DNA of 64,000 nt, from the UHGV virus genome UHGV-0279745, one strand, 5' to 3'. A program made the translations under genes and the position numbers. Below, in pieces: positions 1-57,094 of this stretch. The notes below the pieces were generated by a model. That model did not search any database, was not told the origin of the DNA, and saw only the letters and a program-made list of their open reading frames with translations. How positions within the stretch are numbered: position 1 is the first letter of the stretch; each line of letters starts with the position of its first letter. This DNA comes from a virus.

Positions 1-576
1 AATGATCTGTCTGACGAACAACGTAAGAACTACGCTTTTCGTACTTTGGAAACGTTTAACAAACGCGAATACTGGGCGTATTATTTAAAACGCATCGACA
101 TGCGCGCTGTAAAAACCACCGATTACGATATCAGGCGTGAGAACGGTGTTGAGACCGTCGAAGACTTTGTGTACACAGACACGGAATTAAACCCCGTACC
201 GAAGGTATTGCCGGACTACGATTACGACGACGATGGCACCGTTGCAATCCCAGATGGCCGTTATGTGGAGTCAGGTGCTGACCTGGTTATTCCGTGGACA
301 GACTTTGATGTTCAGGAATATATGAACGTAACGAGCATTATGCGTGGTAGCCCGCGTAGTTCAATTATCTCTGAACTGGCGCTCTGCTCAGGGTTAGACC
401 AGGTCGCGTCCGGGGATTCTGCAACTGGGTCTAAATTCAGTTATAACGAGGCTATCGGTGTTCAGGCGTTGTACTATATTTCGATGTTTACCAACCTGGC
501 ACAGACGAATGACAAATTGTCTTTGACCATTCGTATCGGACAGCCTGCACCGTTCTTCCTGGGGACAGCTAACTGA
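1..576 (+). CDS. hypothetical protein (5' partial; ORF open to window edge)
   Basis: Frame 1 is open from base 1 to the stop at 574-576; the stop overlaps the next start (TGATG). No motif recognised. Confidence 0.5.
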   Translation, partial: NDLSDEQRKNYAFRTLETFNKREYWAYYLKRIDMRAVKTTDYDIRRENGVETVEDFVYTDTELNPVPKVLPDYDYDDDGTVAIPDGRYVESGADLVIPWTDFDVQEYMNVTSIMRGSPRSSIISELALCSGLDQVASGDSATGSKFSYNEAIGVQALYYISMFTNLAQTNDKLSLTIRIGQPAPFFLGTAN

Positions 577-1220
577 TGTTGATACCCGAGCCGAGACTTC
601 CAGATAAGATGGTAAGAATCGCGGCAATAGACCCCGGTACGAGCCATCTTGGTATGGCAGTATTGGATTGGGAATACGGCAGCGATCAAGCCGAAGTGGT
701 TTGGGCTGATACCATGCATGTATTAGACCCAACGCATCCAAATGCGTTTGCAGAGTGTGTCGGTAAGCGTGACGATCGTTTAGTTAAGCTCGAAGCTTGT
801 TACCGTGAATTTCTTCGGATTGCCTGCCCAACTTTCGTTGCAACAGAGACACCGTTTATGCGGAGAGCAAAACTCTCCGCTTATGAATCTGGTGTCGAAC
901 TACAATTAATGTTGCGACGTACTTTGTGGGACGTTTACCCGGAGAAAATTTTACACGGCTTCAATCCTATCATTGTAAAATCATTCGTTGGGGTGGAAGC
1001 GAAGGGGACGGATAAAACCGATATGTTTCGGGCCGTGACCAAGCTCTATCGCGAACATGCTTTGTTTGATATTACAACGTTAGATGAGCACAGTATTGAT
1101 GCTGTGGCGGTGGGAAATATTTTCGTCAGGGTAAATCTGTTAAACTTAAACAGCCTGCTACCGCCTAAACAAAAGTCGACTAAGACCTCCAGGCGGAGAA
1201 GGCGTCGGAGAAAACGATAA
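576..1220 (+). CDS. RuvC-like Holliday junction resolvase (putative)
   Basis: N-terminal IAAIDPGTSHLGMAV resembles the RuvC-fold catalytic motif; Arg-rich C-terminal tail (RRRRRRRKR); start overlaps upstream stop. Confidence 0.55.
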   Translation: MLIPEPRLPDKMVRIAAIDPGTSHLGMAVLDWEYGSDQAEVVWADTMHVLDPTHPNAFAECVGKRDDRLVKLEACYREFLRIACPTFVATETPFMRRAKLSAYESGVELQLMLRRTLWDVYPEKILHGFNPIIVKSFVGVEAKGTDKTDMFRAVTKLYREHALFDITTLDEHSIDAVAVGNIFVRVNLLNLNSLLPPKQKSTKTSRRRRRRRKR

Positions 1221-1798
1221 TGGAACCGAGCACACAAGCACTACCCACTGAAATACTTGACTTATTGATCCAAGCTGGAAACAGAAAGTTAAGTAAAGAA
1301 CAGTCTGAACAGTTAACGAAACTCTTGAAAGCGGCGTATGGGGATGATGTCGATGTTGACGTCACCCGTTCGGGAACAAAGATTCTTTCCGACTTACGCC
1401 CGACGCTAATCGATAACTTAGGCAAACTGTCAGAACAATTCCATCAGCAGGCAACTGACGCTGTGGAATCTCTAGGGGATGAGATTAGCAAAGAAACCAT
1501 GCTAACCTTATGGCCGAAATTATCCGCTCCCCAGAAGTTCATTATTGCCCTCCTGACGTTAGCGACGGTTGTTGTAACCGGTTTCCTGGGTTACGACACG
1601 CATCAACATTTTCCAGAAGACAGTTTAGATGTTCTGATTGTGACGTTGGTACCGTTCTTTGCGTTGGTTGTTTTTGCGACTTGGCCGATTAAAACGTTGG
1701 CTTATAAGTCTCTTGAGATAGCCACAAAAGTTGTTGAGAAGAAGCTTGAGAAATCAGGCCAGCTTAAGTCGAAGACAGAAAGCCCAACAACGAAATAA
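1220..1798 (+). CDS. predicted membrane protein
   Basis: Two hydrophobic helix-length segments (FIIALLTLATVVVTGFLGY; LIVTLVPFFALVVFATW); TAATG overlap with upstream gene; terminator follows. Confidence 0.55.
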   Translation: MEPSTQALPTEILDLLIQAGNRKLSKEQSEQLTKLLKAAYGDDVDVDVTRSGTKILSDLRPTLIDNLGKLSEQFHQQATDAVESLGDEISKETMLTLWPKLSAPQKFIIALLTLATVVVTGFLGYDTHQHFPEDSLDVLIVTLVPFFALVVFATWPIKTLAYKSLEIATKVVEKKLEKSGQLKSKTESPTTK

Positions 1799-1802
1799 CA
1801 TT

Positions 1803-1842
1803 AACCTCTACCTTCGGGTAGAGGTTACTTCTTTTTATTTTT
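1803..1842 (+). terminator. rho-independent terminator
   Basis: Perfect 10-bp stem (AACCTCTACC/GGTAGAGGTT) with TTCG loop, then T-run. Confidence 0.75.
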
Positions 1843-1887
1843 ACAATTTTTAAACATACTGTGAGACTTAAAAGAAGGAGTGCTATT

Positions 1888-2541
1888 GTGGAACCATTAC
1901 GCTTAATGACCAGAACGTTACTGATACCTATTCAGGACCTGAAGGTTGGACCGTTGGTCACCTCTAATGGGGAAATTGTTGATTTCGTTAAAGAGGAAAA
2001 AATTCTTACGGCGGCTTTTCAAGAGACGCTCCATCGCTATTATCGTGCAGTACCTTTATCCGGCAGTCTAGATTGTCCGGGTGTAGAGGGGAGTACGTCT
2101 GCGTTAATAGCGGAGCATTTAGAAAAGAAAGGGTTTGGAGTCGGGAAAGGACAGGTTTTTGTAGACACTGTCACACTGAACAAATACCAAAACGACCTAA
2201 TGTTACAGATAAGGAGATTACTTGCCCGTTATGGTCTGTTCTCGATTAATTGTAAGTTTGACGACGTTCGGATGTTAGACCACGGTTTTACTACCAGCCT
2301 TAAAATCTGTCGTGGTAAAAGATTCATACAGTTTACCTGGTGGGTGCCGTCCCTACGTGGTGAGAGAAAAACAGTGGAGGGGTTGTACGGTTGGGCTTTA
2401 TGGGCCGAAGTTCCAGTAACGAAACTCGATGCGATTATTCCACAGCATCGAAACGTTCCACTTAGCAGTTTATTTACTTCTGGTGGGAACACCACGTGGG
2501 ATGAATTTGTTAAAAACGTTTTATCGATAGGGGAACAATAA
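1888..2541 (+). CDS. hypothetical protein
   Basis: ORF 1861-2541; start moved to GTG 1888, which sits 8 nt after AAGGAG (1874-1879). Confidence 0.5.
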   Translation: MEPLRLMTRTLLIPIQDLKVGPLVTSNGEIVDFVKEEKILTAAFQETLHRYYRAVPLSGSLDCPGVEGSTSALIAEHLEKKGFGVGKGQVFVDTVTLNKYQNDLMLQIRRLLARYGLFSINCKFDDVRMLDHGFTTSLKICRGKRFIQFTWWVPSLRGERKTVEGLYGWALWAEVPVTKLDAIIPQHRNVPLSSLFTSGGNTTWDEFVKNVLSIGEQ

Positions 2542-3017
2542 TGCAGCAGTTAGATATTACCGAAGACAAAATTTCCGCTAAATTTCCTGAATTACGTGAA
2601 TACGTCAAAGACTTAAATTCGATTCGGGAAACGCCAGTTAGAATCACGTTGGCTGTTGAAGACGATATTACACATGGGGTTGCAATCTGGGAGCCGGGGA
2701 ATCTTATCTACCTGGTAGTGGCCGAAGGTTCTCGACGTAGCGGTGTAGGTTCCTTTTTACTGAAATACGTTCAACTTAATTCAGATCGTCAAATGGTGAT
2801 GTGTCGTGTCCATCCCTCAAACATAGACGGGCTGTGTTTCTTTTCCAAAAAAGGCTTCCAAATAGACCGATGGTTTATTGCCAGTGACTCCCGTCGGTAT
2901 TTTCGTATGACGAACAGTAACGTTGATTCGTCATACGCCCCGCCGGAAGAAGGATATTTGGTGGATTTTATTGAAAACACCCCCATCTTTCTCTCTGTTG
3001 CGGATAAGATTTATTAG
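2541..3017 (+). CDS. GNAT-like acetyltransferase (putative)
   Basis: RRSGVGSFLLKYV resembles the GNAT acetyl-CoA binding motif (R-x-x-G-x-G/A). Confidence 0.4.
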   Translation: MQQLDITEDKISAKFPELREYVKDLNSIRETPVRITLAVEDDITHGVAIWEPGNLIYLVVAEGSRRSGVGSFLLKYVQLNSDRQMVMCRVHPSNIDGLCFFSKKGFQIDRWFIASDSRRYFRMTNSNVDSSYAPPEEGYLVDFIENTPIFLSVADKIY

Positions 3018-3036
3018 AAACAGTTGAGAGCCCAAA

Positions 3037-3516
3037 ATGATTCGTGTCGAATATGAGACGCGGTGCTTGGAAGGCAATAAAGCAAAAGTGTTACGTTGCG
3101 TTGAAGTTATCCCCGCACACGAGGTTGATTTACGTACAGGTCGTGTTCGGGGAGTTCCTGTAACGATACTACAACATAATCCTTGTTCGCAATTTAAAGA
3201 GAAGGCAACTCCAGCAGTACGTTCTCGTCGTCGAGAGGACTTTTCTGATCTCCGCAAATCTTTTACACGGCACTACCGACGCAGTAAATGGAAAGTGTTG
3301 GTATTAATTTTAGTGGACGATTTTATTAAAGACTTGGTTTGGGAGGAGGTGCTAAAAGAGCGCGGTTTTACACCCAAACCTTTCTCGTATCACTGGGAAC
3401 GTTTCAAAAAGAAATATCGTGAAGCGCTATGGTTTTCGCCGAACACACGGAATATGATTCCGCGCTTAGAGTCGATGCCATGGCTACGCGATCATCTTGA
3501 TGAGGTAGACCGATGA
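3037..3516 (+). CDS. hypothetical basic protein
   Basis: Long ORF in a co-directional array; no motif recognised. Confidence 0.5.
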   Translation: MIRVEYETRCLEGNKAKVLRCVEVIPAHEVDLRTGRVRGVPVTILQHNPCSQFKEKATPAVRSRRREDFSDLRKSFTRHYRRSKWKVLVLILVDDFIKDLVWEEVLKERGFTPKPFSYHWERFKKKYREALWFSPNTRNMIPRLESMPWLRDHLDEVDR

Positions 3517-3905
3517 AACGAACTGTCATTACCCTATTTCTAACGTTACTTTCATTTTCCGCGTTCGCGGAATTTAAACCGCACGATATTAGTCGTTTTG
3601 AACCTACAGTGCCGGGCGATAAACCCGTCGTTTTTAAATCTACCGACCAGCCAGTTGTTGCAGTTCAAAACGATGAGTTCGCCACGGTAAATTACGGTAA
3701 AACCGAATTGTGCCCGGCAGGCGGCTACTATTTGGTAAACATCAAACGGCGTACATATCAGTTTGTTGATCCGGGTAGTTGTTCTGCCAGTGTAAAGGTA
3801 ACGTTAGAAACTGTACCCTACGCAAATAAAAGTATTAATGTTCAACGTTTAACTTTCTATGTTGGTGATGAGATCACCGCACGGTACCCATTATACGGGT
3901 ATTAG
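3513..3905 (+). CDS. secreted/periplasmic protein (signal peptide)
   Basis: N-terminus MKRTVITLFLTLLSFSAFA has signal-peptide character (basic n-region, hydrophobic core, AFA site). Confidence 0.55.
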   Translation: MKRTVITLFLTLLSFSAFAEFKPHDISRFEPTVPGDKPVVFKSTDQPVVAVQNDEFATVNYGKTELCPAGGYYLVNIKRRTYQFVDPGSCSASVKVTLETVPYANKSINVQRLTFYVGDEITARYPLYGY

Positions 3906-3928
3906 TGATTAACCCCCGCGGAGTTTGT

Positions 3929-4567
3929 ATGTCTTTTGTAATTGATTTTGAAGTTGGTCATAGACAGAACTTACTCAACCTCGTTAGTTACTGTAATAGC
4001 GGCAGTGTACGTAAAAAGCTTTCGGCTGAGAAAGTGGATGTTTCTTTAATAGGCGCACCCACACCGGAAGGTCGGTATCGAGTAAAGTTAACTAACCGCA
4101 ATGATATTAACGACGCGGTGATGATATCTTACACGAAACTTCAATTGAACGACTTTCTTGATATTCCCGGTAAGTATCTGGATTGGTTCGATTTCGAAAA
4201 CGGCCAACCTAAAAATTACGATAAATGGGCAGAGTCCGCGAAAGTGTCGGTGGAGAAGATGTGTCAAGACCGTGGTATGGTTTTGTCGCGTGCATGGGAC
4301 ACGGGCTCGCAGTGTCACGTTGAGTATGATGAGGATCTCGAGCGCTATGTGGTAATTTACGAATGTGATTCGTTTATTTATAGCGCACGAAATAGATTTA
4401 TTCTACCGCTTCATATTGGGCAAATTATTACGAATAAAACCCTTGACGGACTTAATTACAACAACGAACTGAATAAACGTCCTTTAGGGGGCTTAGATGG
4501 TGAGTTGGACGTCTGGATGGGCAAAGCGTTACTCGAGACCGTCGTTTTAAGTGGTTTAGAAGCGTGA
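3929..4567 (+). CDS. hypothetical protein
   Basis: ORF 3905-4567; ATG 3929 follows GGAG; terminator hairpin follows at 4581-4624. Confidence 0.5.
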   Translation: MSFVIDFEVGHRQNLLNLVSYCNSGSVRKKLSAEKVDVSLIGAPTPEGRYRVKLTNRNDINDAVMISYTKLQLNDFLDIPGKYLDWFDFENGQPKNYDKWAESAKVSVEKMCQDRGMVLSRAWDTGSQCHVEYDEDLERYVVIYECDSFIYSARNRFILPLHIGQIITNKTLDGLNYNNELNKRPLGGLDGELDVWMGKALLETVVLSGLEA

Positions 4568-4580
4568 TAACATCACCGAT

Positions 4581-4624
4581 AGGAGAGAACCCTGAAAAGG
4601 TTCTCTCCTGCTTTCTTTTTTTTT
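4581..4624 (+). terminator. rho-independent terminator
   Basis: 11-bp stem AGGAGAGAACC/GGTTCTCTCCT followed by a T-run. Confidence 0.75.
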
Positions 4625-4654
4625 CACTTCACAACTTCAGTATGGAGGTGACAA

Positions 4655-5203
4655 ATGTATAAAATTGCTATTATTGGTTCTCGAGAAACGCCCGAAGACA
4701 CGATGCATGAAATGTTGGATGTGTTGCAACGTGGGTTCAAAATTCTTCGTAATAAACAGCACAGTATCGAAACGCGGTCAGGCGGTTGTTACAAAGGACC
4801 AGACCAATTACAGTTTATGTTAGCACGTACTGAACCAGGTCCACATATTTGTTATTTGCCTGACGAACGTAAGTTGTGGTTACGTAAGTTACATCCGAAA
4901 GTGGATTTTCGCGTTATTCCACAAGACGTCCGTTATCGTGGGATTGTGGCATCGCTTCACCCTAATCCTGATAAGCTATCGGAAATAGCTTGGGCGTTGC
5001 ATGGACGAAACTTAAATATTGTATCCGGTGATTCTTTGGACGATCATGTAGACGCCGTCTATTATTACGCCGAGCATGATAAAAAGGGAAATCCAAAAGG
5101 GGGTACGGCGATGGGTGTTCGCTACGCACAGTCACTGAACATCCCTTGTTATTATCATGTTACGGATGCATCTAAGTGGTTAGAAGACCTACGCTTATTA
5201 TGA
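4655..5203 (+). CDS. SLOG/DprA-like Rossmann-fold protein (putative)
   Basis: IAIIGSRE...RSGGCYKGPDQ resembles the DprA/Smf/LOG (SLOG) nucleotide-binding core; weak, motif level only. Confidence 0.4.
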   Translation: MYKIAIIGSRETPEDTMHEMLDVLQRGFKILRNKQHSIETRSGGCYKGPDQLQFMLARTEPGPHICYLPDERKLWLRKLHPKVDFRVIPQDVRYRGIVASLHPNPDKLSEIAWALHGRNLNIVSGDSLDDHVDAVYYYAEHDKKGNPKGGTAMGVRYAQSLNIPCYYHVTDASKWLEDLRLL

Positions 5204-5253
5204 AGTTAGTCAGGGCGGGCTTCTCCCCGCTTTAGCTTAAAATGGGGTAAAGG

Positions 5254-6387
5254 ATGTCAACATTAGATTCCGATTTAGAAGTCCTTTGCGATGACTACGA
5301 TCGATTGGTCGCGTTAGAATCGCTTAATGTTAAAGACAATTATCCGGCGGTTGTCGCTATCCGAAAACGGTGGGCTTTAGATGATGTCCACGTTGCGTTG
5401 GAGTCTGCAGCGATGATGGAACGCGCGCAATTTGTTGCGGACACCGAACCTTACGCAGGGGTAGGTAAAGCGGTCGCACGCGCGACCGGCAGAGCGGTTA
5501 AGGGAGTTGGACGCGTTGCTGGAAAAGCAGCAGTGGCAGGAGCCAAAGCGTCTGGAAAATTCGCAGGTAAACATTCTAAGCAATTGGCCTTACGTTTTAT
5601 CGACTTCGCGGAAGCCGCCGGTAAAGAAGTTATTAATGAACTGAAAGAAGCGACGTCCAAAGCATCGTCGTTAGAGCGCAAGCTACAGAAGTTAGAAGCA
5701 CGTTTAAGTTTACTCGGTATCAAGGACACTTTAGAACCGGTTGACTGTGACACGGGAAGTTGGACAACCAAAGTTTGTTTAGAAGACAAGCCTAACGTAA
5801 AAGCATGTATTGAGTTCAGTAAGAACCTGAGTGCAATGGATGCGATGGTCAACGAGTATACCGTTAAAACACGTACGTTAATCGGTAAGAGCAAGAAAGT
5901 TACCGAGAGCGGTTTGGAGAAAGTGGGCCGGTCAACGAACTGGGCGATTAAACGAAGCGCAGGGCTGTTCGGTATTATCGATCCGTTTAAAACGGTGAAG
6001 GCATATCCGTGGCCAGGTAACGTGGTGGTCGTTGAACACAACAACGGTAAGATTGAGTGGGCGATTGCCCGCGATGGTGATTTTGGTCACACAATCAAAT
6101 CTCTAAACTTGCACGAAATCGGTTCAGCTCTCGACGCCGTTAGAAACATTATCCGAGCGTTACGTCAGCGTGGTACGAAACGGCGTAGTGTTGGTTATAC
6201 CGGTATTTACGATGAAATTCAACGTATGCGTAAGGAACTTAAGTCGCTTGAAGGGCGGGAGTTACGCGACGCTACCGTACGTTATAAAAACGCACTGCGT
6301 TTAGAAGATGCGTTTACTACCTCGTTAGTGCGCGTTGCGGAAGGGTTACTGGAGTGGTGCAGGTTGTCACTGATTGAGGTTAAATAA
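5254..6387 (+). CDS. hypothetical protein (Ala/Gly/Lys-rich N-terminal half, coiled-coil segment)
   Basis: 377-aa ORF; no catalytic motif recognised. Confidence 0.55.
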   Translation: MSTLDSDLEVLCDDYDRLVALESLNVKDNYPAVVAIRKRWALDDVHVALESAAMMERAQFVADTEPYAGVGKAVARATGRAVKGVGRVAGKAAVAGAKASGKFAGKHSKQLALRFIDFAEAAGKEVINELKEATSKASSLERKLQKLEARLSLLGIKDTLEPVDCDTGSWTTKVCLEDKPNVKACIEFSKNLSAMDAMVNEYTVKTRTLIGKSKKVTESGLEKVGRSTNWAIKRSAGLFGIIDPFKTVKAYPWPGNVVVVEHNNGKIEWAIARDGDFGHTIKSLNLHEIGSALDAVRNIIRALRQRGTKRRSVGYTGIYDEIQRMRKELKSLEGRELRDATVRYKNALRLEDAFTTSLVRVAEGLLEWCRLSLIEVK

Positions 6388-6854
6388 TGCGTATCACTAT
6401 TATTCTCAAACCCGACAGTAAATACGGAAAGTTATACGGAGATCAGGTACTCAAACTGCACAACATGTTGTTCGCAGAAGAGAAAGTGCGTATTAGTCAG
6501 TTAACCGGACGTGACACGTTCAACCCAATTGAACACTTAGAAGAGATCTGGCCCCAAGATTATCTCTGTGCCTGTGCCGTGGATGACAACGAACAGATTC
6601 TGGGTTTCATGACGTTCTCAATAGGTTCTTGCTCGAAGGACACGTTTGTTTATATTGGGAACTACTACGTGATTCCCGAAGCGCGTTCTCAAGGGGTGGG
6701 TCGTGCGCTTATGGACAAAGTACGTGAATACGGAAAGTCCAAAGGTTGTGGTTGGATGAGTTTGGATGTGTTGGACAACAACGTTAAAGCTATCTCCTTG
6801 TATGAGAAAATGGGATTCCGTACTGAATGCAGGGAAATGATAAAGGAAATCTAA
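6387..6854 (+). CDS. GNAT family N-acetyltransferase
   Basis: RSQGVGRALMDKV...YEKMGF matches GNAT motifs A/B; ATAATG overlap with upstream stop. Confidence 0.7.
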   Translation: MRITIILKPDSKYGKLYGDQVLKLHNMLFAEEKVRISQLTGRDTFNPIEHLEEIWPQDYLCACAVDDNEQILGFMTFSIGSCSKDTFVYIGNYYVIPEARSQGVGRALMDKVREYGKSKGCGWMSLDVLDNNVKAISLYEKMGFRTECREMIKEI

Positions 6855-6855
6855 A

Positions 6856-7488
6856 ATGGCTGCAAGATTCGTACCGTTTCACGACGGGTCTAGATATACT
6901 TTTGGTGTAGAGCGTTACGCTGTGGGTTTTCGTCCTGGTTGGAGAGTGGTACGAATCGATAAGGCGTGCTGGTATTTACCGACGGGCATTTTTGATTACT
7001 TTACACCTGAAGCTTTAACGCGGTTTGTTTCTCTGGGTTCTCCCACGCAACGTGCTGCGTGGGAAAAGAATATCCGTTGTCGATATTTAGGCAAAACAAG
7101 AAACGCCACAGTACGGGCAGTTTATCATGTTGGGAGCCGTTGGTTACACGTCGAACCAACACGTCCACGATGTGCAGTGACGCCCTTTAATGGGGAGTAC
7201 AAAGGTCAGGTATACACAGGGTTGCATTTTGCTTTTCCAGACAACCCCGATCTTAATTACTTCTTAGCCACCCCGAAAGACGTTACGTTAGCTACGTTCT
7301 ATAAATACCTTTTGTTCTATCCTGCGTATGTCGTTGCAGAATTTGAACACAAAGCATTTCCTCTGCCATACGGTAGAGACAGGAGATTAGCAGGATGTTC
7401 TATCGAGAACTTCAGCAATACACCGACGCTCTCCGAAAAGCGACCATCGATGCGGACAACAACCTCAGAGATGTCGTTAGCACTATAG
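6856..7488 (+). CDS. hypothetical protein
   Basis: 210-aa ORF; its 3' 94 nt overlaps the next ORF, so the true end is uncertain. Confidence 0.45.
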   Translation: MAARFVPFHDGSRYTFGVERYAVGFRPGWRVVRIDKACWYLPTGIFDYFTPEALTRFVSLGSPTQRAAWEKNIRCRYLGKTRNATVRAVYHVGSRWLHVEPTRPRCAVTPFNGEYKGQVYTGLHFAFPDNPDLNYFLATPKDVTLATFYKYLLFYPAYVVAEFEHKAFPLPYGRDRRLAGCSIENFSNTPTLSEKRPSMRTTTSEMSLAL

Positions 7489-7766
7489 AACAGTGTTCGG
7501 ATGTATTGTATGCGGAAACGATTGAATCGCCGTCTCATGACGGTGTGAAATCGCTCCAGCTACACGTTTGTAGTAAACACGGGAGTCTGTCGTTAAACTT
7601 CCGTGTAGGTTTAGATTATTACATGGTTCGTAAGAGCTATTTAAGTTGTGACGGCGACCTCTATCCGGTTGTCTGGAACAACGATTATTCTAAGTTTGTT
7701 TATCCGCTTGAAGAACACCGACGCACGGTTTATGAATTTGTGAAAGCTGTTCTTGAGGGGTTCTAA
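7395..7766 (+). CDS. hypothetical protein
   Basis: ATG 7395 is preceded by AGGAGA at 8 nt spacing. Confidence 0.5.
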   Translation: MFYRELQQYTDALRKATIDADNNLRDVVSTIEQCSDVLYAETIESPSHDGVKSLQLHVCSKHGSLSLNFRVGLDYYMVRKSYLSCDGDLYPVVWNNDYSKFVYPLEEHRRTVYEFVKAVLEGF

Positions 7767-7780
7767 GAGAGGGCCTTGTA

Positions 7781-8386
7781 ATGTCAGAGATGATTCTCGA
7801 TTCATTACTATTGATTACAGTATCGTATATCAACAAAACGGGCAAGTTGCCTAAACGTGGCGTTACTATCGAACGTGACGGGTTTAAACACCGCTATCCC
7901 TTAACGAAAATTTTGGATTTAGCTGCACGTTTAGCCAAGATGCGTCGACCGAATAGCGAAGCGGCTCCGAAATACGTATTGCTGGTTTTACAACGCGCGA
8001 TTTCTGAGGTGCGACGTAAACGTCGCCGTGCCGCGTTTCGATTTTATCCCAATTCGACGCAACAAGTGGTGGGGGAATACAACGATATGGTTGTCGATCT
8101 TCGTGCAGGTCGGAGTAATGTAACTGGGCTGGCGTATAACCGCCTTAAACGCATTCTGGACGACAGTGATGCTTTAACCACACCGCAAGAGGGTCAAGCG
8201 GCTCTAACGCTTCTACGTGGCACTGAGCTCGTTATTGTGGACACCGCCGTGGAGGCAGCAAGAATGCAACACTATCTTGCTAAACAAGGGTTAGTCTTGC
8301 TGTGCGTAACGTCTGCACAGGCTGCTAACCTCACCGCACCACAAACGTCTGAAGTGTGGAGTGATCCGATTGTTGATCACCAATAA
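7781..8386 (+). CDS. hypothetical protein
   Basis: 201-aa ORF followed by terminator 8394-8428. Confidence 0.5.
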   Translation: MSEMILDSLLLITVSYINKTGKLPKRGVTIERDGFKHRYPLTKILDLAARLAKMRRPNSEAAPKYVLLVLQRAISEVRRKRRRAAFRFYPNSTQQVVGEYNDMVVDLRAGRSNVTGLAYNRLKRILDDSDALTTPQEGQAALTLLRGTELVIVDTAVEAARMQHYLAKQGLVLLCVTSAQAANLTAPQTSEVWSDPIVDHQ

Positions 8387-8393
8387 AACCTTA

Positions 8394-8428
8394 CCCCTAC
8401 TTAACGGTAGGGGCGGGTTTCTTTTTTT
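8394..8428 (+). terminator. rho-independent terminator
   Basis: CCCCTAC-ttaacg-GTAGGGG followed by a T-run. Confidence 0.7.
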
Positions 8429-8514
8429 ACCCTAAATTTTATTACAGATTGATATTATCAATGTGACAACCGTAGTGAGTCGGTAACTCACCAATTTAAA
8501 AAGAGAGATAAATT

Positions 8515-9129
8515 ATGGAAATTAAGCGCTTTGAACTCCCTAACAACTACACTTTAGTTGAAGTTGCTGAAAATGAAATTGGCGAAAATAGAAAGAATGC
8601 GGGCTTTGTCTCGAAAAATTCGCTTTTGATTTATGAAGGTGAGAAATTAAAGTATACCGTTGGTCATCTCTTCACTGAAAATGGAAAACTCTGGGAATCG
8701 CAGTACGAAAGACTGTTGTCGAAATTCCGTTCCCAATTATTGTTGAGATACCTTCGCGATGAGGAAGACTATAAACTCTTTGTAACAAAAGAACAACTAT
8801 TGGCTGATAAATATCCCGCTTATACGGCATGTTTAGCAGCTCTTAAATTGGTCGGCGGTTATGAGGAGTTCGTGGCGGGCAGTAGCAATTTTGCTATCTC
8901 ACGACACAGAGATCGCGTTATCATCAAAGATTTTGAGGTGACCCATATACGTACCGTCACGCTCAGCCTCAAGCATCCTGAAAAGGTGAGTATCGATGAC
9001 CGGTACGTCGTTGCAAACAAGGCCATTTCTTTTACAGCGAAATACCATACCGTCGGTTACCCTACGAGTAAGGAAGTGTACGAAGAACGTAACCTTGAGA
9101 GCTTAATTTCCACATATTTTGAATTGTAA
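8515..9129 (+). CDS. hypothetical protein
   Basis: 204-aa ORF with AGAGAGA upstream; terminator follows. Confidence 0.55.
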   Translation: MEIKRFELPNNYTLVEVAENEIGENRKNAGFVSKNSLLIYEGEKLKYTVGHLFTENGKLWESQYERLLSKFRSQLLLRYLRDEEDYKLFVTKEQLLADKYPAYTACLAALKLVGGYEEFVAGSSNFAISRHRDRVIIKDFEVTHIRTVTLSLKHPEKVSIDDRYVVANKAISFTAKYHTVGYPTSKEVYEERNLESLISTYFEL

Positions 9130-9137
9130 GTAAAACT

Positions 9138-9164
9138 AAGGGGTGTTTTTACACCCCTTTTATC
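9138..9164 (+). terminator. rho-independent terminator
   Basis: AGGGGTG-ttttta-CACCCCT followed by TTTTAT. Confidence 0.6.
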
Positions 9165-9190
9165 TAAAAGCGCGTAAAGGTAAAACAATA

Positions 9191-9814
9191 ATGCTTAAGA
9201 CCGTGTCTATTGATGGTCCTGATTTTTCTGGGAAATCAACGTTGTGTAAAATGGTAAAAGCGATGTTGGAATCCGCAGGGTTAAAAGTTTGTATTCGGAA
9301 CCATCCGACGTCTGAAACCGAGGCAGGCATTCGTGCACGTAGCTTGGTTGTACAGTCTGCTTCGAAAACAAAAATTGCTGAAGCAATGTGTGATGACTTC
9401 CTTCACACGTTAGACCATGTTGTTGACGAGTATGATGTCGTTATTTTCGATCGCTTCTGTCCTTCAACGATCGTTTATCAGGGGACAGATGGTAAGGACG
9501 TGGTTTTCCAACGTAAGCTAACTCGTCATTTCCATACACCAGACCTTTATATTTGGACAGATGTTGATTACCCAACAGCGTTAGCGCGATTTAAGAAACG
9601 TGTAGAAGAACAAGGTAAGAATTGGGACGATGAGGTACTTACGGTTAAGTACCTAAAGGACAATCAATCTTGGGATGGCTTACGCGACCATTATCGTTTC
9701 GCGCATCACATCTTAACAGAAGGTGGTTGTCTTCACGCATTATTACCAGTAACGCAGAATGACGATTACCGTTTGAAAGCCGCTGAGATTGTTACGCACA
9801 TTTTAGCAAACTAA
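9191..9814 (+). CDS. dNMP/thymidylate-kinase-like P-loop kinase
   Basis: Walker A GPDFSGKST and a DR-containing segment (FDRFCPSTIVYQG) as in thymidylate/dNMP kinases. The ORF-track start 9143 lies inside the upstream terminator hairpin, so ATG 9191 is used. Confidence 0.6.
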   Translation: MLKTVSIDGPDFSGKSTLCKMVKAMLESAGLKVCIRNHPTSETEAGIRARSLVVQSASKTKIAEAMCDDFLHTLDHVVDEYDVVIFDRFCPSTIVYQGTDGKDVVFQRKLTRHFHTPDLYIWTDVDYPTALARFKKRVEEQGKNWDDEVLTVKYLKDNQSWDGLRDHYRFAHHILTEGGCLHALLPVTQNDDYRLKAAEIVTHILAN

Positions 9815-9820
9815 CCGCTT

Positions 9821-9858
9821 AGGTACCACCCAACGGTGGTACCTATATTTTATTTTTT
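9821..9858 (+). terminator. rho-independent terminator
   Basis: AGGTACCACC-caac-GGTGGTACCT followed by a T-rich run. Confidence 0.75.
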
Positions 9859-9899
9859 CTCAGATATATTTTACTTAGGTGAGAGTTATGATTAACTCT
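9854..9899 (+). promoter_or_regulatory. conserved promoter-like motif (copy 1) with downstream stem-loop
   Basis: TTTTTTCTCAGATATATTTTACTTAGGTGAGAG; one of four near-identical copies, each after a terminator and before a gene start. Confidence 0.5.
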
Positions 9900-9934
9900 T
9901 TACACCGACTTGTTAACCTAAAGGAGTATTTACA

Positions 9935-10294
9935 ATGGCTTACAATCACAATTCCATCATTCTGGCAAAGCGTAAATTCGGTCTTCACTTGTCTTACGTA
10001 ATTCGTCATTTGACCACAAAAGACATTACTCAGCGTGAACTTGCCCAGCTTGCGAAAGTTTCACAACCTGTTATCTCGTCTATTAAGAACGATCACTCAG
10101 AACGTTTAAGCTTGCCGATTATGATGAAAGTTGCTGATGCGATTCGTCTGAAATACCAGATTAGTTTTAATTCCGTTAAGGGTCGTTGCTCAGTAACCGT
10201 TCACGTAGAGTCCGCGTTGGACTACGTTGCAAACACGTCCATTAAACGCACCACGAAGAATGTGCGTTTTATCACTAACACCGCAACGCACTAA
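9935..10294 (+). CDS. helix-turn-helix (XRE-like) DNA-binding protein
   Basis: ITQRELAQLAKVSQPVISSIKND fits the HTH_XRE pattern; preceded by promoter-like motif and AAGGAG. Confidence 0.6.
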   Translation: MAYNHNSIILAKRKFGLHLSYVIRHLTTKDITQRELAQLAKVSQPVISSIKNDHSERLSLPIMMKVADAIRLKYQISFNSVKGRCSVTVHVESALDYVANTSIKRTTKNVRFITNTATH

Positions 10295-10315
10295 TCAACC
10301 TGAAGGAGTATTATC

Positions 10316-10987
10316 ATGCCACCGAAAATTGGTAAAACTGTAATTGAAGAAACTGTAAAGAACGAGACTAAAGTTAACGAAGCTCAACCGCCTGTGAAAG
10401 TTGAGCTTTTACCCTGCGTTAATGAAATACTCGGGGTGAAATTCTTAACTTTTAGCCCGTATACTGACCTGGTTTTCGAACTTTATCAAGACCAGCCTTT
10501 CAACTTATTCACACTTGTCTGCACTTATAATGGTGATGTTTTGGCGGTTGCACCTGGTCTCAATAGAGACAAATTACTTACAGGCACGGTTATTACTGAA
10601 ATTCTTCTGCGGTTAATGCATAAGTTTGAAGGGCCTGAACTTGACAAAATCGCTGTTAAGTTAGCGGACTTGCTAATCAATGCCGCCACCTGGTTGTGTT
10701 TTAACCCTTCTATCTATTTCCATTTCAGTACAAATATTCTTCACGCCGTAACAGACGACGGTAAAAAGTATCGCATCTTAATTAAGGGTGGGGTGCAACA
10801 ACCTTTGTTCTCTAGACAAAACTGCCATATTAAGTTTTCGCCTGACTTGGTAGAAGTTTACGGCCAGCGAGTAGCGGCTGGCCACTACGATGCCCATCTC
10901 AGATTTTTCAACTACCTGTATGAAAAATTAGGGAAAGCTGGCTTGACACCCAATCTTGCTTTTACAAACTCTGCCCCTTCTGCATGA
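10316..10987 (+). CDS. hypothetical protein
   Basis: 223-aa ORF with GAAGGAG upstream; terminator follows. Confidence 0.55.
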   Translation: MPPKIGKTVIEETVKNETKVNEAQPPVKVELLPCVNEILGVKFLTFSPYTDLVFELYQDQPFNLFTLVCTYNGDVLAVAPGLNRDKLLTGTVITEILLRLMHKFEGPELDKIAVKLADLLINAATWLCFNPSIYFHFSTNILHAVTDDGKKYRILIKGGVQQPLFSRQNCHIKFSPDLVEVYGQRVAAGHYDAHLRFFNYLYEKLGKAGLTPNLAFTNSAPSA

Positions 10988-10999
10988 TGTTTAATAATT

Positions 11000-11035
11000 G
11001 GGGAACTTCGGTTCCCCTTTCTTTTTTGTTTTTAC
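11000..11035 (+). terminator. rho-independent terminator
   Basis: GGGGAAC-ttcg-GTTCCCC followed by a T-run. Confidence 0.75.
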
Positions 11036-11081
11036 AACTTTAGCGTATTGTTTTGAGACGACCTTTTAAGGAGTAATTAAC

Positions 11082-12080
11082 ATGGCTTTTATGAAGATTA
11101 TAAAACATACCGCCACGGATTTAACAGTAGGTCGGTTAGCACGTAGAGATATTCGCAACCCTCAACTTCAGGCATGTTTATCGGGCCCTAACGGTGCTGT
11201 GATTCGTGAGGCGTTGTGCAATAGTGAACTGAATACGTTCTCTTTACAAAAAGGAAAAACAATCCAAGGGTTTATCATCACAAAACACATTTACGGCGAC
11301 CCAACGTTACACTGCTTGTATATGCATGAAATTGTACCGGGTTGTTTGAACAAACTGAACCTGCTACTGGTACTCGACTATACCGGTTTTACGTATCTTA
11401 ATCGAATCGCCAGTGGTGTAGAAGAAATCGCTGAGCTTAACGACTTAGGATTTAGACACACTCACACTACGTATCGCTTAGGTACACGCTCGTTGTTGGA
11501 TATCGCTCTACCAACAAACGTGAAGAACATCTCCGGCGATTTTTATAAAGAGCTAACCGCTGCACAACGTGAACAGCTTATGTTGCTTTTGGGTACGAGT
11601 GTCGTTGAAAACATCAACGCTGACCCTGTGAGTCGCTCACGTCAAATCATGCCACAAGTCGAAACGTTGGTGGAGTTAGTACGTCATGTCAACCACCACA
11701 CCTACGTTTGGATGGATGGCAATGATATTGTGGGCGCGGTGCAAGTTAAATTGCGTAATCTTAACGAGTGTGAATTAAAAGCCATTGCGGTAAGTGAGAC
11801 ACATCGGGGTCGTGGTATCGGACGGACTTTATTGTATCGTGCTCTACAAATTGCATCGACAACAGCGGCACCATTAGAGATAGGGTGTTTCAATAACAAC
11901 CCTGCATTCAGGCACCTGGCCGTCGAATTATTTAAATTTCGCCCCTACGAATACGAACTTGTTTTAGTGCGTGACGAAAACGTCGTCAGTTGGGAGCGTC
12001 AGAAAAATCATGTCAGATTGGTGTTAGTCGACGAAGCGTCATCGTTACAAGGCGGATATAATGCGGAAACCGATAATTAA
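11082..12080 (+). CDS. hypothetical protein with C-terminal GNAT-like domain
   Basis: C-terminal HRGRGIGRTLLYRALQ resembles GNAT motif A; N-terminal 200 aa unknown. Confidence 0.5.
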   Translation: MAFMKIIKHTATDLTVGRLARRDIRNPQLQACLSGPNGAVIREALCNSELNTFSLQKGKTIQGFIITKHIYGDPTLHCLYMHEIVPGCLNKLNLLLVLDYTGFTYLNRIASGVEEIAELNDLGFRHTHTTYRLGTRSLLDIALPTNVKNISGDFYKELTAAQREQLMLLLGTSVVENINADPVSRSRQIMPQVETLVELVRHVNHHTYVWMDGNDIVGAVQVKLRNLNECELKAIAVSETHRGRGIGRTLLYRALQIASTTAAPLEIGCFNNNPAFRHLAVELFKFRPYEYELVLVRDENVVSWERQKNHVRLVLVDEASSLQGGYNAETDN

Positions 12081-12876
12081 ATGGATGGGTGGGAAAACAC
12101 GCGTTTTGGGTGAATTACAAAAGGTCTTACCTAAACGTACAACCTTTGTAGAACCGTTTGTGGGCGCAGGGTCTGTTTTCCTAAATACGAATTACAGCCG
12201 GTATATTCTATCGGATTCTAACCCCGATTTGATACGCTTACTTTGTGTTGCGCGTGAACAGCCTGAAGAACTGATCGCTGCATCGCAACCGTTGTTCTTA
12301 GACGGTAATACCACTGTAAAGTATATGGAACGTCGTGAACTGTTTAATAGCGGTAAATCGATGTCCGAAGTTGAACGTGCTGCAATGTTTTTATACTTAA
12401 TGCGTCACGGCTATAACGGGATGTGTCGTTATAACAGTAGTGGTGGGTTCAATGTTCCGTTTGGACGTTACCCGAATGGCGTTTATTATCCATTAGAAGA
12501 AATTCGGGATTGGGCTAAACGTTGCGCAGAAGTTGAGTATCTGGAAATTGTTTGTGAAGACTTTCGTTCTGTATTAGCACGGACACCTGAAGATGCCGTG
12601 ATTTATGCTGATCCTCCTTATATTCCGTTATCGGATACCGCGAAACACGCGCAATACCACCGTAAGGAATTCTCACAAACGGATCATCGTGAATTAGCCA
12701 AGTTACTACAGCAGCAGGTGGAACGTGGCAACAGCGTCGTGCTGTCAAATGCAGACACCCTACTCACCCGAGAAATTTATTACGGTTTTGAGTGGCGCAG
12801 TATTGAGGTTGGTCGCTATATGGGTGCGTCTGGTGCCGCTCGGAAAACAGTGACTGAATTACTGGGAGTGCTCTAA
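12061..12876 (+). CDS. dam: DNA adenine methyltransferase (Dam, GATC-type)
   Basis: Near-colinear match to E. coli Dam as recalled: KWMGGK, VEPFVGAGSVFLNT, GYNGMCRYN..GGFNVPFGRY, and catalytic DPPY (ADPPYIPLS). Confidence 0.92.
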   Translation: MRKPIIKWMGGKTRVLGELQKVLPKRTTFVEPFVGAGSVFLNTNYSRYILSDSNPDLIRLLCVAREQPEELIAASQPLFLDGNTTVKYMERRELFNSGKSMSEVERAAMFLYLMRHGYNGMCRYNSSGGFNVPFGRYPNGVYYPLEEIRDWAKRCAEVEYLEIVCEDFRSVLARTPEDAVIYADPPYIPLSDTAKHAQYHRKEFSQTDHRELAKLLQQQVERGNSVVLSNADTLLTREIYYGFEWRSIEVGRYMGASGAARKTVTELLGVL

Positions 12877-13649
12877 TGCGCATAGTGGATATCCACGATT
12901 ATCGTAATGACCATTTAGCAATCGGTGTGGATGGCAAAATGGTTTCGCTAACCCGTGTACGGAAAGGGTTACTGGAAAAGGACGTCATTCGCGAATCTGA
13001 AGATCCGACCTTTATCATTCTTTCGAACACGAATCAGCTGCAAGGAATTTTCTCCGGTCGCACTGACGGTAAGATTTTCTACATGTCAGCAATCGTTGTG
13101 TTTGCGAAGAAGAACATCAATTTCGCACAACTCAAACGGTTGTTAAATGTGGAGGTGTTTGATATAACCTACCCTGCCAACGACCTAAAACGTCGCGATC
13201 AGTTAATGGCGTTTTTGGGTATGCAGCCGACGTCTATCGACTATGAGCTGACGTTTACTGAAAAACCTGAGGTTCGTACCGATTTACCTGATGTCGATGA
13301 TATTGAATCTCTAACGTTAGAAGAAACGTTTACGATTCCTAAGGTGGCTAATGTCAGTTTGGATACGTACTGCCTGGGTTTGTTAGCGATTGGGGCTGCC
13401 GAAGGGCTGTGCTGTCGTAAAGACGGTAAAGTTGAAGGTATCTTAGTCTATTCGAAAATCAACGAAAAGACGTTTGCCACCGAAGGTTTCTTCTATAATG
13501 ACTGTACTTACGGGAATGCACTCTTAACCACATACTGTCGTATTGCGTATTTAAAGGGTGCAGCCGTGCGTCTTACTTTTCCATACTCAGCACCACCGGC
13601 GATGCCTGGTGTTGAAGTAGAAGCTTTAACTGGCCATTTTATCTTTTAA
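12876..13649 (+). CDS. hypothetical protein
   Basis: 257-aa ORF; start overlaps the Dam stop (TAATG). Confidence 0.55.
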   Translation: MRIVDIHDYRNDHLAIGVDGKMVSLTRVRKGLLEKDVIRESEDPTFIILSNTNQLQGIFSGRTDGKIFYMSAIVVFAKKNINFAQLKRLLNVEVFDITYPANDLKRRDQLMAFLGMQPTSIDYELTFTEKPEVRTDLPDVDDIESLTLEETFTIPKVANVSLDTYCLGLLAIGAAEGLCCRKDGKVEGILVYSKINEKTFATEGFFYNDCTYGNALLTTYCRIAYLKGAAVRLTFPYSAPPAMPGVEVEALTGHFIF

Positions 13650-13658
13650 GGACATTGA

Positions 13659-13886
13659 ATGGAAATCAAACGTATTGTAACCAAAGACAAAAAGATTACT
13701 TACGTCGCAGGTGATAACGAATTCTCGGCGGTTATTAATACTGAGAACGTGCTGATTATCGGTTATCCAGGTAAAGTCATTACTCGTAGCCATCAGCGCG
13801 TGATTGACAAGCTCATCGCCAAAGCAAAAGCGCGTGATGGTGTTGGTTCAGTAGAAACCCATACCGGGTTAACGTTGGCACTCTAA
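13659..13886 (+). CDS. hypothetical small protein
   Basis: 75-aa ORF in co-directional array. Confidence 0.45.
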   Translation: MEIKRIVTKDKKITYVAGDNEFSAVINTENVLIIGYPGKVITRSHQRVIDKLIAKAKARDGVGSVETHTGLTLAL

Positions 13887-13924
13887 CCAGCAGGTAATAT
13901 GACCTCTTAACTGGAGACTTAGAG

Positions 13925-14431
13925 ATGAAAGAGACTCTGGATTTTAATCAGCTTGAGCAGCACGATTTTGATCTCGGTGTTCGCGACTTAGAAGCTGACT
14001 ACGAAACGCGTTGTAAAGAATTCTTTAATCGCTACGGGCAATTGATTACCGGGGCATCTGAAGACACCGAATTCTCGTTAGACGATTTCGAAAAGATTCT
14101 ATCTTGCTTTATCACCGACAGCTTAGCGAAACAGGCGTTGCTGGTAGAACAGAACCTGCAAATGGTGGAGCCTACGGATGCTCACGCCGTGCTAAAAGAA
14201 TCCATTATTCCGAACGACGAAATTATGGATGCGGTAGCAGGTATTCGTGGTACGTTCGACAGCGCTGTGGAAGACTATACCGAGCAGCTTCGTGAGTCTG
14301 GGCTAACGTTATGTGCACCTGCGGGCGAACAGTTACCTTCTGAAGAAGAAACGGAAGAAGCACGCAGTCGCTTAGCACGTTATGTGATTACTTCTATTTT
14401 AGTAGACGATCGCGAAGAAAACGTACTGTAA
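13925..14431 (+). CDS. hypothetical acidic protein
   Basis: 168-aa Asp/Glu-rich ORF; terminator follows. Confidence 0.5.
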   Translation: MKETLDFNQLEQHDFDLGVRDLEADYETRCKEFFNRYGQLITGASEDTEFSLDDFEKILSCFITDSLAKQALLVEQNLQMVEPTDAHAVLKESIIPNDEIMDAVAGIRGTFDSAVEDYTEQLRESGLTLCAPAGEQLPSEEETEEARSRLARYVITSILVDDREENVL

Positions 14432-14435
14432 ACTT

Positions 14436-14474
14436 CCCCTCTCTCCGTTTGGAGGGAGGGAGTATTTATTTTTA
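14436..14474 (+). terminator. rho-independent terminator
   Basis: CCCCTCTCTCC-gttt-GGAGGGAGGG followed by a T-run; near-duplicate of the terminator at 15501. Confidence 0.7.
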
Positions 14475-14528
14475 CGCTTTCGTGTCTAATTATGCACACG
14501 TAAACAAAATTAATTGAGGAACAGCTAA

Positions 14529-15150: not shown

Positions 15151-15160
15151 TAATTGTCTA

Positions 15161-15206
15161 AAAAATTTAAGATATATTTCATCTATGTGAGAATTCTCAC
15201 TTAACT
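15161..15206 (+). promoter_or_regulatory. conserved promoter-like motif (copy 2, diverged) with palindromic stem-loop
   Basis: AAGATATATTTCATCTATGTGAGAATTCTCACTTAAC; the GTGAGA...TCTCACTTAAC part matches copy 4. Confidence 0.4.
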
Positions 15207-15223
15207 AAATGGAGTAATCTAAA

Positions 15224-15493: not shown

Positions 15494-15500
15494 GCAGTGC

Positions 15501-15540: not shown

Positions 15541-15548
15541 CGAGGTGT

Positions 15549-20005: not shown

Positions 20006-20020
20006 ATCTGGGAGGTTTTA

Positions 20021-57081: not shown

Positions 57082-57094
57082 CAAAAAATTCTCC

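Follow-up and report, generated by a model that had tools for sequence, protein, structure and literature searches.

The 64,000-nucleotide stretch of the virus genome UHGV-0279745 (hereafter the window) contains three genes for GNAT-type acetyltransferases, called here GNAT-A, GNAT-B and GNAT-C, which sit in a run of tightly packed genes on the same strand (Table 1). The original prediction, made from the letters of the window, had proposed three to four such genes within about 10 kb. Three were found on the plus strand as open reading frames (ORFs) at exactly the coordinates it named, with matches in Pfam, PHROG and PDB, and when the 80 ORFs of the window were all scanned with Pfam, GNAT families appeared in exactly these three, so that sequence profiles give no fourth GNAT. 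Hidden Markov model (HMM) searches had been proposed as the check, with a single confirmed gene as the outcome that would speak against the prediction. Two ORFs pass their Pfam cut-offs, namely GNAT-B (PF00583, Acetyltransf_1; 71.4 bits, cut-off 20.7, E = 1e-19) and GNAT-C (PF00583; 48.1 bits, same cut-off, E = 1.7e-12), and the match in GNAT-C is confined to residues 198-280, in the C-terminal part where the signal had been located. GNAT-A matches phrog_7861 ("acetyltransferase") end to end at 1.7e-70 and the "putative acetyltransferase" of PDB entry 7DQG over residues 4-155 at E = 3.4e-61, with about 60% identity. All three translations carry the acetyl-CoA pyrophosphate loop, defined as Q/R-x-x-G-x-G/A between beta4 and alpha3, in the form of RRSGVG in GNAT-A, RSQGVG in GNAT-B and RGRGIG in the C-terminal domain of GNAT-C, and these loops are conserved in the ortholog alignments. 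The GNAT fold (beta-alpha-alpha-beta-beta-beta-alpha-beta-alpha-beta) was assigned to GNAT-C from an AlphaFold2 (AF2) model and Foldseek searches, to GNAT-A through the approximately 60%-identical 7DQG, and to GNAT-B by sequence alignment to solved GNATs.

When the whole 9.5-kb GNAT region was compared by megablast with 50,697 INPHARED phage genomes, no match was obtained; the phage is too divergent at the nucleotide level, and protein-level searches were therefore used. In tblastn, GNAT-A, GNAT-B and GNAT-C all matched the same set of jumbo phages, made up of Salmonella phage SPN3US and its relatives and the Erwinia phages phiEaH2, Asesino, Stratton, Caitlin, Kwan and others, at identities of 59-68%, 40-51% and 26-31%, respectively. 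Positions 1-16000 of the window are gene-for-gene collinear with 84-100 kb of SPN3US. The shared order runs from a virion protein through a RuvC-like resolvase, GNAT-A, a DprA-like protein, the internal head protein and GNAT-B to thymidylate kinase, a helix-turn-helix protein, GNAT-C, a Dam methylase and a family of proteins of about 260 aa. Collinear gene order was also seen in Asesino, phiEaH2, Caitlin and Kwan, and the trio is arranged as in SPN3US in Caitlin and Kwan; the syntenic position of GNAT-C is empty of GNAT-C in Asesino and phiEaH2. GNAT-A, GNAT-B and GNAT-C are the positional orthologs of SPN3US gp88, gp95 and gp104 (original numbering), for all of which the SPN3US GenBank record JN641803 gives the annotation (putative) acetyltransferase, and tblastn recovered homologs of the three in 62, 63 and 48 phage records, respectively, most of them already annotated as acetyltransferases. 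Seoulvirus and Erskinevirus belong to the Chimalliviridae, the nucleus-forming jumbo phages. Closer relatives are the 225,038-bp metagenomic contig L006, whose copy of the block is 93-99% identical in nucleotides over the genes that were compared, and sequences on other contigs about 224-225 kb long or in assemblies that bear the labels Shigella sonnei and E. coli. From these comparisons we assign the window to an enterobacterial chimallivirus of about 225 kb, a distant relative of SPN3US and of the Erwinia phages phiEaH2, Asesino, Caitlin and Kwan. That a divergent lineage associated with E. coli and Shigella carries the same GNAT trio is new here.

Compared to L006, the ratio of nonsynonymous to synonymous substitution rates (dN/dS) was 0.045 for GNAT-A, 0.054 for GNAT-B and 0.137 for GNAT-C, low values that indicate purifying selection on all three. 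Together, these results suggest that the three genes would have been inherited vertically, as orthologs of gp88, gp95 and gp104, that they would encode three different enzymes whose source is not recent local duplication, and that purifying selection would keep each within its own terminator-bounded transcription unit. This account, taken as a whole with the roles proposed below for each enzyme, is the best explanation of the locus and in our view a likely one. Several acetyltransferases in one region had been thought unusual, a description that does not fit a trio with gene-for-gene counterparts in SPN3US and mostly annotated homologs in dozens of phage records. The trio is a conserved gene set of SPN3US-like jumbo phages and an ordinary finding, and reviews already note multiple GNATs in jumbo phages (PMC13282480, PMC7824862). 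One member (GNAT-A) has an ortholog with a crystal structure and another (GNAT-B) has orthologs with measured activity. The new points, namely the role of GNAT-B, the tandem architecture of GNAT-C and the degenerate folds, would not greatly surprise specialists. As a separate observation, synonymous divergence (dS) from L006 was 0.25 at GNAT-B and 0.23 at GNAT-C, 3-10 times that of most neighbouring genes (0.02-0.08), which suggests that precisely these two loci have undergone mosaic recombination with a relative that is more distant.

GNAT-A is 59-68% identical to its orthologs in SPN3US, phiEaH2 and Asesino and 49% identical to that of Caitlin, and it shares with the orthologs a C-terminal extension (RYFRMTN...PPEE...PIFLS). 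SPN3US gp88, the protein of the 7DQG structure, agrees with GNAT-A in genomic position, in the SRRxGxG loop and in the extension, and differs from it at about 40% of residues. GNAT-A would accordingly belong with 7DQG in one family of GNATs that bind acetyl-CoA. Going by the title of their 2022 report, Ki et al. are said to have crystallised this SPN3US ortholog in complex with acetyl-CoA, in what they call a novel dimeric arrangement. A later paper cites Ki et al. for the idea that capsid assembly or phage proliferation is helped by N-terminal acetylation. Other similarity of GNAT-A is faint, to RimI, Ard1 and Naa50, and its match to the RimI model TIGR01575, the second among its NCBIfam matches, stays at 18.6 bits against a cut-off of 86.4. 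Based on this faint similarity and on the way the structure paper is cited, a protein N-terminus is our best guess for the acceptor of GNAT-A, offered with low confidence.

A specific substrate can be proposed for GNAT-B from activities measured in its orthologs. Li et al. (2023, PNAS; PMC9992855) looked for spermidine N-acetyltransferases among viruses and expressed the candidates in E. coli BL21 delta-speG, and N-acetylspermidine accumulated with the proteins YP_007237670 of phiEaH2 (154 aa) and YP_009292176 of Caitlin (155 aa), but not with YP_009153389 of SPN3US, so that two of the three orthologs tested were positive (PMC9992855). A check of the annotations showed that YP_009153389 is SPN3US gp95 and that the genes of the two active proteins lie directly 3' of the internal head protein gene, that is, at the position of GNAT-B; the same placement was found in all genomes examined (SPN3US, Asesino, phiEaH2, Caitlin and Kwan). 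Over its full length GNAT-B is 50.0% identical to the phiEaH2, 45.8% to the Caitlin and 48.1% to the SPN3US protein. The two active orthologs are merely 56.5% identical to each other, and spermidine activity is therefore probably ancestral to the group. SPN3US gp95 departs from both active proteins by a non-conservative change at 13 positions; at these, GNAT-B matches the active ones at seven, SPN3US at one and neither at five, a comparison that offers weak but consistent support for a spermidine activity of GNAT-B.

Five GNAT-B orthologs share 54 invariant columns, which include the RxxGVG loop and Tyr139. By sequence, the closest solved structure is diamine acetyltransferase 2 (2bei, 4e-10), and the polyamine acetyltransferase 8a9o is among the top four PDB matches. 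In the alignment, both the acetyl-CoA loop and Tyr139, at the catalytic position, are aligned. Scores against NCBIfam models were 51.5 bits for RimI (TIGR01575; cut-off 86.4), the top match, and 26.1 bits for the PaiA-type spermidine acetyltransferase (NF053587; cut-off 250), and no entry identical to the exact GNAT-B protein was found on record. GNAT-B thus appears, as far as its sequence can tell, to resemble SpeG and SSAT in predicted function without belonging to the SpeG, PaiA or SSAT families. Like the phage spermidine N-acetyltransferases, it falls into a group of proteins of 154-155 aa with 46-51% identity over the full length and the same genomic position; the activity of the phiEaH2 and Caitlin enzymes was measured, whereas that of GNAT-B is predicted. 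We propose, with moderate confidence, that GNAT-B most likely transfers the acetyl group of acetyl-CoA to spermidine, an activity shown for two orthologs and predicted here for GNAT-B, and that the infected cell would thereby be left with less of its active, fully charged polyamine. The targets of the acetyltransferases had been described as unknown. This still holds for the acceptors of GNAT-A and GNAT-C but no longer for GNAT-B, whose syntenic orthologs make N-acetylspermidine (PMC9992855) and for which a specific biochemical role can now be proposed.

The AF2 model of GNAT-C (mean predicted local distance difference test (pLDDT) 80, predicted template modelling score (pTM) 0.73) contains the GNAT order of strands and helices twice, and residues 1-11 and 305-332 are predicted to be disordered. 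In a Foldseek search of PDB, the leading matches of the model were two-domain GNATs, with alignments of about 300 columns or longer. Among them were the clavulanate-pathway tandem GNAT 2WPW (1.8e-13) and Legionella VipF (6WQB/7WX7; 6e-13), as well as M. abscessus MAB_4324 (7Q3A), the mycothiol synthase MshD (1OZP) and Eis-like proteins. Like GNAT-C, 2WPW, VipF, MAB_4324 and MshD have two GNAT folds per chain (E = 1e-13 to 6e-9 over 305-345 columns), but identity is 11-16% and TM-scores are 0.42-0.49, the architecture being shared and family membership not. The equivalog model of MshD is not reached (20.5 bits, cut-off 163.1), nor is that of RimI (TIGR01575; 25.9 bits, cut-off 86.4), which is the top NCBIfam match. 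The canonical acetyl-CoA loop is found only in the C-terminal fold; the N-terminal domain lacks a Q/RxxGxG loop and has EIVPGCLNK in its place. Unlike the four tandem GNATs named above, the N-domain is marked by two invariant motifs of its own, GDxTLxC and LxLDxTG, and it contains as many invariant residues as the C-domain. The two halves are equally constrained relative to L006 (dN/dS of 0.09 for the N-domain and 0.10), and BLASTP of one half against the other gave no significant match.

On these results GNAT-C is a tandem GNAT, an architecture that is new here; its N-domain is degenerate yet functional, and its C-domain is probably the catalytic one. The C-terminal domain, which keeps the acetyl-CoA loop, would presumably be catalytic, and the conserved loop-less N-domain would presumably shape or bind the acceptor, as in MshD and VipF; the architecture is read from a confident structure model, and from it we infer the mechanism and the handling of the acceptor. 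With the tandem architecture the search for this acceptor becomes narrower, and the conserved N-domain motifs would be expected to make up the site that receives it.

A fourth GNAT is possible in two senses, as the second fold inside GNAT-C and as the 257-aa ORF downstream of it. No Pfam match was obtained for this ORF or its 17 relatives (18 family members). An HMMER search of 1.84 billion representatives yielded only 9 clusters of this tiny family, and a deep alignment is therefore not obtainable. The ORF has no Q/RxxGxG acetyl-CoA loop. Its AF2 model has a pLDDT of 41 and is unusable as a structure; its top 50 Foldseek matches were all GNATs or tandem GNATs, weak ones with a best E of 1e-3. 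In hhalign, the 257-aa family and the GNAT-C family aligned collinearly over 187 columns at 17.5% probability (3-4% with a shallow profile). The family profile retrieved noise only from PDB sequences, and BLASTP of the ORF against GNAT-C gave no significant match. A search of BFVD with the GNAT-C model returned, beyond the orthologs, the phiEaH2 protein J7KKF1 (256 aa; E = 9e-9, TMt 0.58), a 276-aa Kwan protein (5e-10) and the Kwan protein A0A1B2IE03 (215 aa; 7e-8). J7KKF1 is phiEaH2 gp030, a member of the 257-aa family profile. The 276-aa protein matches Kwan gp133 by length and organism, and the gp133 gene lies directly after Dam and encodes a full-length BLASTP homolog of the 257-aa ORF. 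A0A1B2IE03 is Kwan gp127, with no detectable counterpart in the window. Together, these models and searches make it likely that the 257-aa ORF has a degenerate tandem-GNAT fold without the acetyl-CoA loop, which is new here; lacking the loop, it should not be called an acetyltransferase. The gp106/gp107 family would probably have the GNAT fold, and several "hypothetical" neighbours are probably degenerate GNAT folds as well.

One neighbour in this part of the block is the plus-strand ORF at 10316-10987 (223 aa), immediately upstream of GNAT-C, whose C-terminal FFNYLYEKLG resembles the end of a GNAT core. It had no Pfam or PHROG match and a single weak BLASTP match (0.002), to Caitlin gp114 at the same position, and it may be another degenerate GNAT-like protein. 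The probable degenerate neighbours suggest that the fold is recycled in Chimalliviridae. The C-terminal domain of chimallin, the protein of the nuclear shell, has a GNAT-like fold without active-site residues (PMC9365700), a precedent from the same phage family for a GNAT fold that serves a structural role without catalysis, to be compared with the N-domain of GNAT-C and the 257-aa ORF. The parallel with these loop-less folds is an analogy by description. It is possible to go further and see a lineage-specific radiation of the GNAT fold, with up to six GNAT-fold domains in four genes of the window (GNAT-A, GNAT-B, the tandem GNAT-C and the 257-aa ORF) and further copies in relatives (SPN3US gp107, phiEaH2 gp030 and Kwan gp127). 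In such a radiation only three domains keep the acetyl-CoA loop, and the loop-less copies, under purifying selection, are exapted pseudo-enzymes that would have taken on jobs such as acceptor-targeting subunits, regulators of GNAT-C or decoys for host GNAT-type factors. The layout, in which the loop-less copies overlap Dam and the active tandem GNAT or lie right next to them, suggests that translation is coupled. We regard a radiation of this extent as rather improbable.

The positions of terminator-like hairpins place the three GNATs in separate units (Table 1). The start of GNAT-A shares a TAATG with the stop of an upstream 226-aa ORF, and the start of GNAT-B shares one with the stop of the internal head gene. 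GNAT-C is served by a separate AAGGAG ribosome-binding site, and its last 20 nt overlap the start of Dam, the stop of which in turn overlaps the start of the 257-aa ORF (TAATG). The stop/start overlaps of the GNATs with the internal head gene and with Dam are new here. The conserved coupling of GNAT-B to the internal head gene suggests, though we infer this from gene arrangement, co-expression with the head genes. With this coupling in mind, one may ask whether the acetylation of polyamines has less to do with early anti-defence than with packaging the DNA or balancing charge in the capsid. The main texts of SPN3US virion and assembly papers, supplementary tables being outside the search, make no mention of gp88, gp95 or gp104, and nothing was found to show that these are virion proteins.

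The block had been taken for an early-type region. It is not clearly so, since it also holds a fragment of a virion-protein gene (DUF7208), a RuvC-like resolvase and the internal head gene, and since its only strong promoter-like repeat (9861-9885) precedes no GNAT. This repeat is one of three plus-strand copies of the 25-nt motif CAGATATATWTTACYTAGRKGAGAG (9861-9885, 27958-27982 and 32346-32370; zero expected by chance), with a degenerate copy near 15170-15200. The three copies lie between genes, the ones at 9861 and 27958 immediately behind a terminator hairpin. A short inverted repeat (GAGAG..CTCTC) comes after each of the three, and the distance from the copy to the start codon downstream (9935, 28030 and 32416) is about 45-50 nt. 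CAGATATATWTTACYTAGRKGAGAG contains TATATTAC, which we take to be the core of phiKZ early (virion RNA polymerase) promoters, and it is probably a phage promoter plus a hairpin in the 5'-untranslated region. A literature search on the core TATATTAC was uninformative, and this octamer alone is not enriched in the window. A second motif suspected after terminators, TTTTTTACAAC, was dropped, as it is not enriched (46 matches against 51 expected).

Table 1. Features of the GNAT region in the window, with the evidence for each.
Feature	Position	Strand	Basis
GNAT-A, 158 aa, SPN3US gp88 ortholog (YP_009153382; PDB 7DQG)	2541-3017	+	PHROG, PDB, tblastn
GNAT-A acetyl-CoA loop RRSGVG	2733-2750	+	translation
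GNAT-B, 155 aa, ortholog of phiEaH2 YP_007237670, Caitlin YP_009292176 and SPN3US gp95	6387-6854	+	Pfam, tblastn, synteny
GNAT-B loop RSQGVG	6684-6701	+	translation
GNAT-C, 332 aa, tandem GNAT, SPN3US gp104 ortholog	11082-12080	+	Pfam, tblastn, AF2, Foldseek
GNAT-C N-terminal GNAT fold (predicted), residues 14-133	11121-11480	+	AF2 secondary-structure order, Foldseek, invariant columns
GNAT-C C-terminal GNAT fold, residues 147-296, presumed catalytic	11520-11969	+	Pfam PF00583, AF2, Foldseek
GNAT-C loop RGRGIG	11805-11822	+	C-terminal fold, translation
257-aa ORF, phrog_9941, ortholog of SPN3US gp106, phiEaH2 gp029 and Kwan gp133	12876-13649	+	Foldseek, hhalign, BFVD
Internal head protein gene (phiKZ_IP / phrog_2497)	5254-6387	+	stop overlaps GNAT-B start
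Dam-type N6-adenine DNA methyltransferase gene	12061-12876	+	PF02086, 194.8 bits
Terminator-like hairpin opening the GNAT-A unit (1861-4567)	1802-1827	+	hairpin with T-run
Terminator-like hairpin closing the GNAT-A unit	4580-4610		hairpin with T-run
Terminator-like hairpin closing the GNAT-B unit (4655/5254-8386)	8394-8413	+	hairpin with T-run
Terminator-like hairpin	9820-9845		hairpin with T-run
Terminator-like hairpin just upstream of the GNAT-C unit (11082-14431)	11000-11017	+	hairpin with T-run
Terminator-like hairpin closing the GNAT-C unit	14437-14460		hairpin with T-run

Several observations weigh against the account of three vertically inherited enzymes with the roles proposed. GNAT-A scores 22.9 bits against PF13508 (Acetyltransf_7), below the Pfam cut-off of 27, and its low-confidence acceptor reaches us through a secondary citation of the 7DQG paper. 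GNAT-B reaches no NCBIfam equivalog cut-off, the position of the general-base Glu of SSAT is occupied by Gly91/Asn92, and the spermidine-negative SPN3US gp95 is as close to it (48%) as the active orthologs, so that activity in the lineage of the window is not assured. The AF2 model of GNAT-C was built on an alignment of 11 sequences, and its low TM-scores to PDB tandem GNATs (0.42-0.49) make the orientation of the two domains uncertain. The Pfam score of GNAT-A could be taken to mean that the motif-A-like segments are chance resemblances or that the ORFs are not real genes, a reading whose probability we put close to nil, considering the E-values of 3.4e-61 (A), 1e-19 (B) and 1.7e-12 (C), the orthologs kept in dozens of phages and dN/dS values of 0.05-0.14. 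The inactivity of gp95 on spermidine and the non-conserved catalytic Glu bear on GNAT-B itself, which might be an acetyltransferase of the antibiotic type (AAC(6') or streptothricin), of another small molecule or of proteins, the N-acetylspermidine formed by its orthologs then being a side activity. Sub-threshold NCBIfam matches to AAC(6') group E (AAC_6p_group_E; 42 bits, cut-off 140, the best score for any aminoglycoside or streptothricin family), PseH and STAT fit such an enzyme, as do PDB matches that include nourseothricin acetyltransferase and AAC(6'). However, the scores of the resistance families all lie 4-10 fold under their cut-offs, the best PDB match of GNAT-B is a diamine acetyltransferase, and both of the active orthologs, for all their divergence from each other, act on spermidine. 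We judge a non-polyamine substrate to be distinctly unlikely and retain spermidine as the preferred one.

The possibility raised originally, that the GNATs have host-takeover or anti-defence functions, deserves more weight, although we still think it unlikely that the three are early effectors that acetylate host proteins. The models for such effectors would be the phiKMV protein Rac, which acts on the alpha subunit of RNA polymerase, or ribosome-directed GNATs, and jumbo-phage reviews predict Rac-like or ribosomal-protein-like roles for their GNATs (PMC7824862; PMC13282480). Like the GNATs of the window, Rac is a phage-encoded GNAT, but no phiKMV-like (Rac-bearing) phage was among the tblastn matches at E<=1e-5, and no link to RNA polymerase was found. 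RimI is the top sub-threshold NCBIfam match for GNAT-B and GNAT-C and the second for GNAT-A, yet all its scores are far under the cut-off. According to a suggestion in PMC9992855, an enzyme made early might weaken CRISPR and restriction by depleting spermidine, and the acceptors of GNAT-A and GNAT-C leave room for such a role; against this, the orthologs of GNAT-B act on a small molecule, the TAATG overlap of GNAT-B with the internal head gene fits a late gene better than an early one, and the promoter-like 25-mer stands upstream of no GNAT. A PADLOC scan of the four proteins gave no match to defence systems or GNAT toxins, and structures of the TacT or AtaT type were absent from the top GNAT-B PDB and GNAT-C Foldseek matches listed. 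No support was found for membership of GNAT-A, GNAT-B or GNAT-C in the Rac, RimI, AAC or toxin families, and host-takeover or anti-defence roles, though possible, find no direct support in these searches. The junctions around GNAT-C could also be read as a module for DNA or nucleotide modification, in which GNAT-C, Dam and the degenerate GNAT-fold gene would combine Mom-like acylation of adenine with N6-methylation. GNAT-C, Dam and the 257-aa ORF overlap end to start, the order of GNAT-C, Dam and the paralog or paralogs is kept in SPN3US, Caitlin and Kwan, and Mom-type DNA-modifying GNATs are known in jumbo phages (PMC7824862). But Asesino and phiEaH2 keep Dam and the paralogs without GNAT-C at that position, which indicates that the genes are separable; no Mom-family Pfam match was obtained, and the structural neighbours of GNAT-C are tandem GNATs of small molecules or proteins. 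Such a module is very improbable.

Several other features were recorded in the window. Between the GNAT-B and GNAT-C units, the plus-strand ORF at 8515-9129 (204 aa) has no Pfam or PHROG match and is flanked by terminator-like hairpins. It is absent from the otherwise collinear L006, where a 201-aa gene is followed directly by thymidylate kinase, and it is a strain-specific accessory gene. Downstream of the GNAT region, a 124-aa ORF at 19559-19933 (plus strand) is the counterpart of an L006 gene (18479-18853) whose product has a DUF488-N3a domain ("active DUF488-N3 subclade"). Matches to DUF7941 (best E = 2.9e-53) were obtained for six ORFs of the window, one of them at 19988-20581 on the plus strand, and these six matches point to a local paralog family. 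On the minus strand lie two adjacent, overlapping radical-SAM/4Fe-4S genes (41992-43314 and 43298-44221; 440 and 307 aa), which could be a pair for nucleotide or peptide modification, and three consecutive, very large ORFs of 1727, 1401 and 1440 aa (47601-61417) with no Pfam match at E<=0.001. The plus strand encodes at 20784-25385 a T4-type long-tail-fibre protein of 1533 aa with Phage_fiber_2, Gp34_trimer and Peptidase_S74 (intramolecular chaperone) domains, directly followed at 25385-26167 by a gene for a Gp38-type adhesin (PF05268, 6e-69). The presence of T4-type fibre genes in an SPN3US-like jumbo phage suggests exchange of host-range modules with T-even phages.

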